In this document: piece after piece, positions 26,047 through 28,826 of the stretch | Layout of the letters: each line of letters starts with the position of its first letter | How positions within the stretch are numbered: the stretch's first letter is position 1 | Source of the DNA: a virus | Lineage: Duplodnaviria > Caudoviricetes | Virus record (IMG/VR): IMGVR_UViG_3300029288_000066 | Span: 1 to 64,000 of that record | Direction: 5' to 3' (one strand) | DNA: 64,000 nucleotides | Notes under the pieces: model-generated | Seen by the model: the letters and a program-made list of their open reading frames with translations, nothing else | What the model was told of the DNA's origin: nothing | Database searches by the model: none | Translations under genes and position numbers: made by a program

Positions 26047-26847
26047 TCACAAAGGCAATTGAATACTCTTCAGAAGATTGGTTGACACATGTGTATAAAC
26101 CTCTGTTGTTTTTGAGGAAGAGTGTCCAAGAAGTTTTTGAATAATTCTCAAATCAACTCCAGATTCCAACAAAGCTGTGGCACAACTATGACGCAATAAA
26201 TGAAAATGATATTCATTACCAATATATTTTCGCACAATTGCATTGCACGATTCTTTTGAATATTGCAAAGAATTTTGGCCATTAAACAAATATGTTTTTG
26301 GTTTTAATTGAAGATAATATTCTCGAAGCAATTCTAACACTTTCTGTGACAGCGGAACGATTCTGTCTTTTCTCCCTTTACTGTTGATTATATTAATAAT
26401 CATTCGTTTTGAATCTATTTCTTCAATTTTAAGATTTAGCACTTCGGACACACGCATACCAGTTGAATATGCCAATGAAATTATTGCCTTGTGTTTAATA
26501 TTGCTAATCTTGTTAATTTGAGCTAGCAGAAACTCTTTTTCAATAATTCTTGGTAATTTCTTTTCGCCTCTTGGTCGCTCAAACGATACTTTAATATACT
26601 TCTTGTTAAGACCAAATTTATAAAGAAATCTTATAGCATTTATGACTTGATTTTGCTGCGAAATCGAAGAAAAAACGTAATTGTTTAAATAAACCTGAAA
26701 ATCTGTTGCATTTAAATGAACAACTTGCTTATTAATGGTTTCTACAAATTGCTCTATATAAAACAGATATATGGTTCTTGTGTTTTCAGCATAATTTAAA
26801 AATATAAGCTTTTGTTCACAAATCTTTATAATTTTCTGATTTATCAC
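26047..26847 (-). CDS. tyrosine recombinase (integron-integrase-like, SAM_4-type N-terminus), lacking the IntI-specific insertion
   Basis: NYAENTRTIY, SQQNQVINAIRFLY, KKLP, TGMRVSE (R), KGRKDR (K), HLLRHS, LLGHSS, TEVYTHV. Confidence 0.9.
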   Translation of the reverse strand: MINQKIIKICEQKLIFLNYAENTRTIYLFYIEQFVETINKQVVHLNATDFQVYLNNYVFSSISQQNQVINAIRFLYKFGLNKKYIKVSFERPRGEKKLPRIIEKEFLLAQINKISNIKHKAIISLAYSTGMRVSEVLNLKIEEIDSKRMIINIINSKGRKDRIVPLSQKVLELLREYYLQLKPKTYLFNGQNSLQYSKESCNAIVRKYIGNEYHFHLLRHSCATALLESGVDLRIIQKLLGHSSSKTTEVYTHVSTNLLKSIQLPL

Positions 26848-26884
26848 GATGCAATTGTTTTGTTTTCAATTGTTTTTAAAAACA

Positions 26885-26906
26885 TGCTTATATATACTAG
26901 TTCAAG
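26885..26906 (+). promoter_or_regulatory. attI-like site (TATATACTAG|TTCAAG)
   Basis: first G|TT lies 53 bp above the integrase start; not preceded by a hairpin; cassette 1 terminal IR starts exactly at the TT. Confidence 0.7.
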
Positions 26907-26926
26907 CGAAATGCCGTCGCACACAA
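26900..26926 (+). repeat. 27-bp direct repeat, copy 1 (cassette 1 start)
   Basis: GTTCAAGCGAAATGCCGTCGCACACAA, identical at 28318-28344. Confidence 0.95.
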
Positions 26927-26943
26927 TAAAGATAAGGCAAATT

Positions 26944-27090
26944 TTAACACTTCTCTTTATCCAAAATGCAATCCTTACCTGTAACCTTTAAACTTGTAGT
27001 GATACATCTGAACTCCTTATGAATATAACTCCAATAAGTATTGTTGCATTTTTCAGTGCATTTTCTAACAACTTTCTTTTTATCTTTCAT
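26944..27090 (-). CDS. cassette 1 ORF, 48-aa Cys-rich peptide
   Basis: hand-translated MKDKKKVVRKCTEKCNNTYWSYIHKEFRCITTSLKVTGKDCILDKEKC. Confidence 0.55.
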   Translation of the reverse strand: MKDKKKVVRKCTEKCNNTYWSYIHKEFRCITTSLKVTGKDCILDKEKC

Positions 27091-27131
27091 ATCACTTTCA
27101 TTAAAATTTTATACCTTATCTTTCCTTTTCA

Positions 27132-27157
27132 ATTTCGCTTGAATGGGCGAGGAATAG
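27132..27157 (-). repeat. internal inverted copy of the cassette 1 circle junction
   Basis: reverse complement = 27320-27333 joined to 26901-26912, 26/26. Confidence 0.9.
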
Positions 27158-27200
27158 AGCCAACTCTTATAAATTGCTGTCCCATACCGACGGCATCTCG

Positions 27201-27339
27201 CTTGAACACAGAATAGCGGTAATTCACGCATTTTACCACCAAGCAACTGCAATTTATCCTGTATCTTTTTTCTCATTTATTTTAAAATTACATTTTAAAA
27301 AATGCTCAAAAACATACCGCTATTCCTCGCCCATTATAT
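27201..27339 (+). other. attC-like site 1
   Basis: CTTGAAC..GAATAGCGGTA / TACCGCTATTC..A|TTATAT; 27188-27207 is an inverted repeat of 26900-26919 (19/20). Confidence 0.8.
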
Positions 27340-27361
27340 GGCATTGCTCCCGCAATTTCTT

Positions 27362-27616
27362 TTAGTCTTTCTGTGGCTCATAAAATTTGCATTCTGTATT
27401 AATACCATCACAAAAAGTATAATTACTTTCTTCGTGGTTCATACACATCGAAGAAGTATGAGTGCAAATTTCACTACCTTCTTCTTTGCCTGAATTAATT
27501 GATTTTTCTTGTAGGAATCTGTCTTTTATAAAATACAGATACTCGTAATTATCTTCTGGAAATTCTTTTTCAATTTCTTTTATAAAATCAATTAATTCTT
27601 TTTCAAGTTGTTTCAT
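27362..27616 (-). CDS. cassette 2 ORF, 84-aa protein with C-terminal Cys cluster
   Basis: MKQLEKELIDF...CTHTSSMC..C..C. Confidence 0.65.
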   Translation of the reverse strand: MKQLEKELIDFIKEIEKEFPEDNYEYLYFIKDRFLQEKSINSGKEEGSEICTHTSSMCMNHEESNYTFCDGINTECKFYEPQKD

Positions 27617-27649
27617 AGCAATTTCAGTGTTTATGCCTACACACAGGCT

Positions 27650-27677
27650 GCAATGCCATATAACGTGCGGGCGGTTG
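27650..27677 (-). repeat. internal inverted copy of the cassette 2 circle junction
   Basis: reverse complement = 27786-27799 joined to 27334-27347, 28/28. Confidence 0.9.
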
Positions 27678-27735
27678 TACAATTAGTTAATTATCATTCT
27701 TTCTATTTTCTTTTTACGTTAATCCTGCAACGTCC

Positions 27736-27805
27736 ATATAACAAGCGTTTGCCGCTATTAGCCCCGAAAATGGGGCAACAGACGGCAACCGCCCGCACGT
27801 TAGGC
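27736..27805 (+). other. attC-like site 2
   Basis: ATATAAC-AA-GCGTTTGCCG..GCCCC-gaaaat-GGGGC..CGGCAACCGC-CCGCAC-G|TTAGGC. Confidence 0.85.
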
Positions 27806-28189
27806 TTCATGCTCCAACGCACTCAGTTCCGTTAAGTCAGCAAGCAATTCGATACCTTTTTCAGTAAGCCAACCCGGCACACTTCCACCGTGTTCTGTAA
27901 GTTCCTTATTGTCTAAGAAGTACCACATAAAATATTCTGCCCCAGAATTTGCAAATACTTCATTTTTACGTTTATCCCATTGCTCGTATGTTAATTTCTT
28001 TTCCCATACAAGCTGATTAAGGTCATCAACTATTTGCAAAGCCTTACGCACGTGTTCTAATGCAGCATCTGGCATCCCACACCCACAGAAACCTAACACA
28101 CCAGTAGCTATAAAACTTTCTGCATCTTCATAGTAACATTCATCTTGGTCATAATAACCATCTTCTTTTTTAAATTTATCTATAAACAT
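27800..28189 (-). CDS. cassette 3 ORF, 129-aa hypothetical protein
   Basis: GFCGCGMP and TEHGGSVPGWLTEKG motifs; stop TAA overlaps the GTTA core. Confidence 0.75.
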   Translation of the reverse strand: MFIDKFKKEDGYYDQDECYYEDAESFIATGVLGFCGCGMPDAALEHVRKALQIVDDLNQLVWEKKLTYEQWDKRKNEVFANSGAEYFMWYFLDNKELTEHGGSVPGWLTEKGIELLADLTELSALEHEA

Positions 28190-28223
28190 ATCGTTTCGTT
28201 TTACCCGCCCACAAAGCACGAAA

Positions 28224-28324
28224 GCCTAACAAGCGGTATAGTTAATAAAGGCTGAATTAAGTTTATTTCTTCGATTGGTCGGTAGTGGTCAGCCTTTACT
28301 AAACCATACCGCCAGCCGTTCAAG
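28224..28324 (+). other. attC-like site 3
   Basis: GCCTAAC-AA-GCGGTATAGTTAATAAAGGCTGA / TCAGCCTTTACTAAACCATACCGC-CAGCC-G|TTCAAG. Confidence 0.88.
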
Positions 28325-28344
28325 CGAAATGCCGTCGCACACAA
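28318..28344 (+). repeat. 27-bp direct repeat, copy 2 (cassette 4 start)
   Basis: identical to 26900-26926. Confidence 0.95.
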
Positions 28345-28414
28345 CAAAATCAATTCAATTTTTTCCATAATATTAATTTTAGTTTATTTGTATATACTTT
28401 TTTAAAAATCCACG

Positions 28415-28470
28415 CTTCGCTTTAAAATTCATAATTAAATCTACCACTACAATCCCAGACCTCGTTATGC
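28415..28470 (+). other. degenerate attC-like site 4
   Basis: CTTCGCTTTAAA as a remnant of the expected TTCGCTTGAAC, then G|TTATGC at 28464; stem lost. Confidence 0.45.
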
Positions 28471-28740
28471 ACAATTAAAACGTATATGAAAGTAATGCTG
28501 TGCTATGAATCCATCTTTTACTTTCATAAAAAAAGTTATCTCGTAATTTGGATTTAAATTTTTTGAACAATAGTGATTATATAATAAATCGTGCAACCTT
28601 TTCAAATCGTAATCTATTACAATATCACCTTCTATATCCATTTCATGTCCGCAAGAACACGTAGTGTTAAATCCATTATCACGTAATATTTTTACGATTT
28701 CTCTTATAGGTTCTTCAATATTTTCTTCGTACCAATTCAT
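28465..28740 (-). CDS. cassette 5 ORF, 91-aa protein (TTCSCGH motif)
   Basis: stop TAA overlaps the GTTA core; flanked by TTATGCACAATTAAA / TTTAACCGTGCATAA. Confidence 0.75.
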   Translation of the reverse strand: MNWYEENIEEPIREIVKILRDNGFNTTCSCGHEMDIEGDIVIDYDLKRLHDLLYNHYCSKNLNPNYEITFFMKVKDGFIAQHYFHIRFNCA

Positions 28741-28771
28741 ATTCAAAAAATTTAGTTTATAATTTAACCGT

Positions 28772-28826
28772 GCATAACAAAGTCTAAAAAAACATTAAAA
28801 CGATTTTTTACACTCAACCGTTATTC
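28772..28826 (+). other. attC-like site 5 (last in array)
   Basis: GCATAAC-AA-AGTCTAAAAAA..TTTTTTACACT-CAACC-G|TTATTC. Confidence 0.8.

Follow-up and report, generated by a model that had tools for sequence, protein, structure and literature searches.

The DNA analysed here is the first 64,000 nucleotides (hereafter the window, bases 1-64000) of virus record IMGVR_UViG_3300029288_000066, a linear record of 228,886 bp (~229 kb) that is 82% complete. This virus record is a large phage, as its genes for the large terminase subunit, an endolysin and a sigma factor and its 53 tRNAs and transfer-messenger RNA (tmRNA) show. An initial annotation of the window had proposed an integron-like array of gene cassettes beside a tyrosine recombinase gene. 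The locus is very likely a mobile cassette system and, with somewhat less certainty, can be regarded as a phage-encoded, integron-like cassette platform. Its features are given below in window coordinates, with lengths of proteins and of open reading frames (ORFs) in amino acids (aa).

26047..26847, minus strand: tyrosine recombinase, 266 aa, with R132, K157, H216, R219, H242 and Y251 intact and without the insertion of integron integrase IntI.
26886..26902, plus strand: attI-like docking site with ATA at -8 to -6, a six-base spacer and crossover G|TT between 26900 and 26901.
26901..27333, plus strand: cassette 1, in the newest position, delimited by its unit ends and own-start match.
26944..27090, minus strand: 48-aa ORF of cassette 1, without a family match; it may not be a real gene.
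27201..27339, plus strand: attC-like site 1, with crossover A|TT at 27333.
27334..27799, plus strand: cassette 2, delimited by its unit ends and own-start match.
27362..27616, minus strand: 84-aa ORF of cassette 2, with one homolog at 46% identity.
27736..27805, plus strand: attC-like site 2, a hairpin.
27800..28318, plus strand: cassette 3, with homologs elsewhere that start at exactly 27799 and have lost the hairpin partly or wholly.
27800..28219, minus strand: ORF of cassette 3, 139 aa from GTG (129 aa in close homologs), from a large uncharacterised family; its stop codon lies within the GTTA core.
28224..28324, plus strand: attC-like site 3, a hairpin that matches the site model.
28319..28464, plus strand: unit 4, a remnant of 146 bp with a right-arm-like end that has no partner (no left arm).
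28465..28820, plus strand: cassette 5, with a second copy in the genome that is 93% identical and has the same two ends.
28465..28746, minus strand: ORF of cassette 5, 91-93 aa, with homologs in other phages that lack cassette ends.
28772..28826, plus strand: attC-like site 5, of a short fixed-loop family common to many phages, with two changes relative to the solo copy.

All strings quoted in the initial annotation were found at their places. The recombinase ORF lies on the minus strand, 53 bp from the docking G at 26900; the units start at 26900, 27333 (A|TT), 27799, 28318 and 28464, and four of them end in AAC...(G/A)TT hairpins, in which the C at 27207, 27742, 28230 and 28778 is partnered at 27333, 27799, 28318 and 28820, respectively. 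It had also been claimed that the outer arm of each hairpin is complementary to the start of its own unit and not to that of the next. This was borne out, with scores of 16, 8, 8 and 8 against the own start versus 2, 3, 2 and 4 against the next. In related arrays, a score of at least 7 against the own start was obtained at 58/70 junctions in a first set and 155/226 in a second, versus 5/70 and 8/226 against the next start. The cassettes accordingly end as those of integrons do, in palindromes whose inverse core matches their own start. A pairing of the end of a cassette with its own start is possible only in a circle. The first 27 nt of unit 4 are identical to the start of cassette 1.

A site model trained on 21 sites, all from other phages, recovers sites 3 and 5 (scores 43 and 55) and gives one further strong site at genome 119,212-119,253; it misses sites 1 and 2, which have GC-rich arms. 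Shuffled genomes yielded 0.17 matches per genome at a score of 30 and none at 32 or above. For the family of site 5, 94 distinct viral sites were picked on loop and cores alone. At each of seven stem positions 78-91 of the 94 are paired, with several Watson-Crick types per position, and 88% pair in register versus 26-40% in shifted registers; it is structure, not sequence, that is conserved in these stems. Hairpins 1-3 also fold better than their shuffles (z -2.8 to -3.9), while hairpin 5 taken alone does not (z +0.45 / -1.38) and is recognised as a member of the covarying family. Folding of both strands, which had been proposed as a check, placed the bottom strand 1.7-3.6 kcal/mol lower, and every detected site upstream of the integrase faces the same way. 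Because a wobble-pair bias toward the bottom strand was not evident in the unbiased 94-site set, the choice of strand is argued from folding energy and uniform polarity only.

The geometry of these sites differs from that of canonical attC. The right arm is longer by 1-4 nt in 94/94 sites of the short family, and the stem offset is 2-4 in 58/58 phage cassettes, in a scan that permitted offsets of 0-4 only. Four canonical attC sites of Shewanella phage M16-3, used as controls, have equal spacers and the extra base on the left arm. The symmetric unpaired spacer and left-arm extrahelical bases of canonical attC are absent from the phage sites.

At the docking site, ATA (-8 to -6) and GTT (0 to +2) are invariant in 13/13 tabulated phage loci, and the motif lies 45-67 nt upstream of the recombinase start codon across enzymes of 36% to 79% identity. 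Its outline, a six-base spacer between short AT boxes, is dif-like. In relatives it is this attI-like site, adjoining the recombinase gene, that takes in new cassettes at G|TT. With an intact recombinase 53 bp from the array, the locus is not a CALIN (a cluster of attC sites lacking an integron integrase), which is defined by the lack of an integrase near the sites. A genome scan for half-sites found 4 left and 7 right arms versus 0-2 and 0-5 in shuffles, without a clear excess beyond the known sites.

An invariant gene order among related phages, which the initial annotation had named as evidence against its reading, was not found: units are gained, lost and reordered at G|TT, and cassette content and order vary among relatives as they do in integrons. 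The locus pairs L108/L110, L011/L013 and L118/L121 are the same up to the docking GTT and unrelated a few bases beyond; L112 and L114 have two cassettes in common and diverge at the third G|TT; and a 1-kb cassette that is fifth in L011 is first in L013 (93% identical). Further cases come from cultured Polaribacter phage isolates of the Freya series (L021, L343-L350; Freya_1, 5, 6, 8 and 10), with an enzyme 36% identical to the 266-aa recombinase and the same docking motif. Freya_6 matches Freya_5 except for one extra hairpin-ended cassette of 472 bp, which lies at the docking site; in Freya_5 the docking site is joined straight to the start of a later cassette of Freya_10, with 100% identity beyond. 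Freya_1 has a similar junction further on, which is weaker and coincides with record ends. The isolation paper, from which the word cassette is absent, gives sizes of 44.0-48.9 kb for the Freya genomes and takes the enzyme to indicate lysogeny (PMC8776804); judging from the sequences of the four isolates compared, the 44-49 kb size range is explained by cassette differences. An array is present in Leef_1 (L023) too, and a docking site in Ingeline (L022); together with Freya, these phages are systems ready for experiments. In Polaribacter phage P12002L (L338, 30011-32692) five sites of this system lie in one orientation around methyltransferase genes; the published analysis of this cluster listed two sites (PMC9892861).

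Cassettes have also landed outside the array. The second copy of cassette 5, at genome 118903-119252 within L003:18903-19255 (genome 118903-119255), lies 90 kb off, is 93% identical and is bounded by G|TT at both ends. Its target, a few bases upstream of a phage start codon, has the ATA-N6-TT docking pattern. Cassette 3 has homologs in L213 and, in one further context, in L214-L217, all of which begin at exactly the same G; L213 keeps the left arm only and L214-L217 keep no hairpin arm. The cassette 5 gene has homologs of up to 90% identity in other phages, where cassette ends are missing. Cassettes thus seed genes outside the array and then decay, in agreement with what was predicted for off-array insertions (10.1101/2022.09.11.507474). 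Taken together, the sequence comparisons show that units bounded by G|TT move whole, are taken in beside the recombinase gene and change their order, and that they also settle at docking-like secondary sites elsewhere in the phage genome, where they can lose the hairpin and become ordinary genes.

One explanation for these patterns is that ordinary double-stranded sites recombine, the G|TT core alone being of importance, and that the hairpins are kept for RNA reasons such as termination or processing. In its favour, a short target suffices for secondary insertion, and the longest ORF starts inside the hairpin loop in 24/55 phage cassettes, so the sites are transcribed (in L105, L112, L116 and L117 the N-terminal part of a protein is encoded by the recombination site in this way). 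A terminator reading was rejected, since 0/4 hairpins score as an intrinsic terminator. The flanks of G|TT are unrelated between sites, whereas the two-exchange double-stranded reaction of tyrosine recombinases poorly tolerates unrelated sequences beside the crossover, and the end of a cassette tracks its own start. We therefore regard this explanation as very unlikely, and consider it likely that the recombinase works on folded single strands and makes a single exchange at G|TT.

The recombinase itself has the complete catalytic set R132, K157, H216, R219, H242 and Y251 (R-K-H-R-H-Y), which is invariant in 28 homologs. Its best hidden Markov model (HMM) is XerA-like NF040815, at 179 bits versus a cut-off of 220; it scores 152/330 with TIGR02225 and 145/335 with TIGR02224, and by score is not a member of the XerA, XerC or XerD families, being under every curated cut-off. 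With the integron integrase model TIGR02249 it scores 147.5 versus a cut-off of 265, in a match split into two stretches. The alignment to Vibrio cholerae IntI4 (PDB 2a3v) breaks between query residues 187-213 and chain residues 188-264, an interval in which IntI is ~50 residues longer, and alignment to the IntI of Shewanella phage M16-3 leaves the same gap. In a structure model (predicted local distance difference test, pLDDT, 85) residues 182-208 form a loop and one helix only; structure searches with the model retrieved XerA first (5hxy, 4a8e) and IntI4 next. The recombinase lacks the IntI-specific insertion (I2 helix) in its catalytic domain. This absence may go together with that of the extrahelical base which the insertion reads.

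At least 119 homologs at 65-84% identity have nearly the same length; several are on contigs of 100-360 kb, and the contigs inspected are phage-like. In a quick tree, the one phylogeny used, the large-phage enzymes cluster (SH-like approximate likelihood ratio test, SH-aLRT, 91; inner group 99) apart from host enzymes, IntI and XerC/D; those of Freya, Ingeline and Leef are on long branches and the deeper branching order is unsettled. Related insertion-less enzymes were seen in L135, L151, L153, L192, L200 and L148, with labels Bacillota, Patescibacteria, Ignavibacteriota and Acinetobacter, and L200 has its sites downstream. Viral tyrosine recombinases of ~29% identity (L014-L019) have no sites of this family nearby; L014 and L015, the only two of them placed in the tree, fall with IntI.

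We propose the following scheme. A cassette would be excised as a circle by recombination of two folded single-stranded sites, and its start would then pair with its own end to form a Xer-type half-site of ~11 bp. The circle would enter the docking site, which is double-stranded and dif-like (ATA, six bases, TT), through one cut at G|TT, and the single-cut insertion would presumably be resolved by phage replication. For folded single-stranded substrates and circular intermediates, the covariation of the stems and the junction copies described below lend indirect support. The 2-4 nt right-arm bulge may take the place of the extrahelical bases that IntI reads via its extra helix.

The adjacent 266-aa Xer-like recombinase is, with good confidence, the enzyme that moves the cassettes. 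The alternative is that a chromosomal homolog of the host, or a host Xer, moves them and that the phage recombinase does another job, for instance dimer resolution at the docking site. This would suit the dif-like outline of that site, the XerA structures closest to the enzyme, the many phage arrays without an enzyme in the fetched DNA, and the presence of such sites on Bacteroidota chromosomes next to an enzyme of 41-50% identity. New cassettes, however, enter directly beside the phage recombinase gene, the docking site keeps its distance from the start codon while the enzymes diverge, and the phage cassettes carry phage-type genes in an orientation opposite to that of host cassettes. We judge this alternative unlikely.

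Phage and host versions are arranged differently. In phages the array lies upstream of the integrase in a divergent layout; on Bacteroidota chromosomes the sites lie downstream of the enzyme, which is co-oriented, and almost never upstream. Cassette genes are antisense to the sites in 55/58 phage cassettes and in 147/155 of an independent set (total 202/213), versus sense in 31/32 host chromosome cassettes. As array side and gene orientation are opposite to those of hosts, the phage arrays are not simply captured host arrays. A third alternative, in which the locus would serve for prophage attachment or would be part of a host integron that the phage has captured, is disfavoured and appears extremely improbable. 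Captured pieces of chromosomal integrons are known in temperate phages (PMC9892861), and the same enzyme was annotated as integrase and read as a temperate sign in Freya, Leef and Ingeline (PMC8776804). Against it stand this opposite layout, the quick tree, which places the phage enzymes outside the host enzymes sampled, and the cargo homologs, which are phage genes; moreover, Ingeline and Leef each have two integrases (PMC8776804).

The phage cassettes do not have the integron arrangement of genes sense to attC and expressed from the cassette promoter Pc. Their genes run in the direction of the integrase, so that transcription probably comes from an operon of the phage itself and not from Pc. 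No excess of promoters over shuffles was found in the array, in a search with the E. coli consensus only; of 51 long phage sites, 15 carry the Bacteroidota -7 promoter motif on the top strand and 3 carry it on the bottom strand.

A further element lies within each of cassettes 1 and 2:

27132..27157, minus strand: perfect 26-nt inverted copy of the predicted circle junction of cassette 1 (13 nt of right arm, A, 12 nt of own start).
27650..27677, minus strand: perfect 28-nt inverted copy of the predicted circle junction of cassette 2 (13 nt of right arm, G, 14 nt of own start).

The copied junction would exist only with the cassette as a circle or tandem repeat. Each copy takes in exactly 13 nt of the right arm and no more, and that of cassette 1 includes the atypical crossover A of site 1. 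No such copy was found in 245 other cassettes, the best matches being 19/26 among 90 and 16/26 among 155. In folding, the copy outcompetes the normal hairpin, and on the other strand each copy resembles a host-type cassette start ~50 nt before a gene. The copies may be template-switch scars that lock the cassette, or additional sites without a bulge, through which a cassette could be inserted both ways round. An origin from an inverted dimer followed by deletion fits poorly, as the spacer after each copy mismatches the other end of the cassette.

Several observations weigh against a platform driven by the phage's own enzyme. The IntI insertion is reported to be essential for integron function, and also to be incompletely conserved in a wider subgroup (PMC8138268); given the former, recombination of hairpins by an insertion-less enzyme is putative. 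For phage arrays of the site 5 family, an integrase was present within the limited flanks fetched at 9/119 loci, so a host enzyme could serve integrase-less phage arrays. Unit 4 and the junction copies suggest that the present array is partly decayed or locked. Finally, the host of this large phage is probably a member of the Bacteroidota, as read from relatives, since this is where the closest cellular homologs of the recombinase and the cultured Polaribacter and Cellulophaga phages with the same parts point.

The cassette proteins match no Pfam or NCBIfam family at cut-off, and their Atlas matches are unnamed, mostly viral clusters below 0.9, from which no function is deduced. A pattern search of viral contigs gave no relatives of the cassette 2 or 3 proteins. 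The end of cassette 1 had no match in the viral sequences searched; in 401 sampled genomes site 2 was not found and site 1 gave only AT-rich partial matches. Three matches to an arm of site 2 were discarded as chance, lying inside a coding region of unrelated GC-rich phages. Rfam had no match within the array.

Around the array, a gene at window 28821-29411 adjoins its far end and has its stop codon inside the final GTTA; a 73% identical homolog lies just past the far end of the L105 array in reversed orientation. Just past the far end of another array, L108:4188-4748 has a weak Pfam match to Acb1 (anti-CBASS, CBASS being the cyclic-oligonucleotide-based antiphage signalling system). On the other side a glycoside hydrolase family 16 gene (window 25190-26044), a possible auxiliary polysaccharide gene, converges on the integrase. 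A 384-aa ORF against the local strand (window 20222-21376) resembles by eye a TnpB-like (IS200/IS605) nuclease, with similar ORFs at genome 676-1839 and 207141-208334. The Rfam DUF805b RNA motif was found above gathering score at window 13530-13565. Further along the record, the tmRNA call is of the permuted type (genome 84078-84424), and the 53 tRNAs span genome 115165-196678, with a CUA-anticodon tRNA at 196604-196678 as a possible amber suppressor; the solo cassette 5 copy lies just past the tRNA cluster.

Compared with known systems, the locus shares with integrons such as those of IntI1 and V. cholerae IntI4 a divergent tyrosine recombinase, a docking site, tandem cassettes with the newest first, G|TT, a hairpin outer arm that matches the own cassette start, and uniform site polarity. 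Unlike them it has an enzyme without the IntI insertion, a 2-4 nt right-arm bulge instead of a single left-arm extrahelical base, half-sites of ~11 bp, and antisense genes that often start in the site loop. XerA, XerC and XerD with dif resemble it in best HMM and structures, two-domain size and six-base docking spacer; the present enzyme differs in being under all Xer cut-offs and in its association with a variable array of cassettes instead of chromosome dimer resolution. In Treponema-type integrons the integrase is co-oriented and a true IntI; the host version, with its array downstream of a co-oriented enzyme, is similar to these in layout and the phage version, being divergent, is not.

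Integron parts in phage genomes have been published. Qi et al. 2023 described three complete IntI-type integrons in temperate phages or a prophage, and in virulent phages integrase-less clusters only (PMC9892861). Among the sites of that study, attC1 of P12002L has the same loop and architecture as site 5; it was the one phage site of six not verified as an IntI1 substrate, which is in line with a different cognate enzyme, one that the paper does not describe. Insertion outside arrays, at attG, has been seen with laboratory IntI1 on short double-stranded targets, with domestication by hairpin loss (bioRxiv 10.1101/2022.09.11.507474). The solo cassette 5 copy and the decayed cassette 3 copies resemble this, as a natural record in phage genomes that involves a non-IntI enzyme. 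In the literature searched, which covered few subscription papers, no description of an insertion-less cassette system was found.

The initial annotation had spoken of a jumbo phage with its own gene-shuffling integron. Gene shuffling is retained, as units move at G|TT; membership of the IntI family is not, given the insertion, geometry and gene orientation. The locus, judged on these defining features, functions like an integron but is not an IntI-family member. The annotation also held a phage-encoded array to be notable; phage integrons as such are already published (PMC9892861), and the new part is an insertion-less recombinase clade with its own site geometry. The window is a complete example of it, to which are added the duplicate of cassette 5 in the same genome, the junction copies and the series of Freya isolates.

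It is tempting, though doubtful, to go further and see here a second, separately built kind of integron, in which a Xer-sized, insertion-less recombinase works on folded single strands, either convergently or as a surviving stage of integron origin. Bacteroidota phages would then run their own branch, make their own genes into cassettes and seed their genome with them, and the junction copies would be frozen intermediates of cassette making or of gene flipping between the orientations of host (sense) and phage (antisense).

The ability of a tyrosine recombinase to use folded single-stranded sites is ascribed to the IntI insertion. With an insertion-less enzyme and sites without the extrahelical base, the origin of integrons from Xer-like enzymes and the creation of cassettes become testable, and a cultured test system exists in the Polaribacter phage Freya isolates, whose enzyme was earlier read as an ordinary lysogeny integrase. 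The system is apparently widespread, a single site family accounting for at least 119 viral stretches, and searches that require the IntI insertion would miss it. Phages would thereby obtain a programmed reshuffling of small accessory genes.

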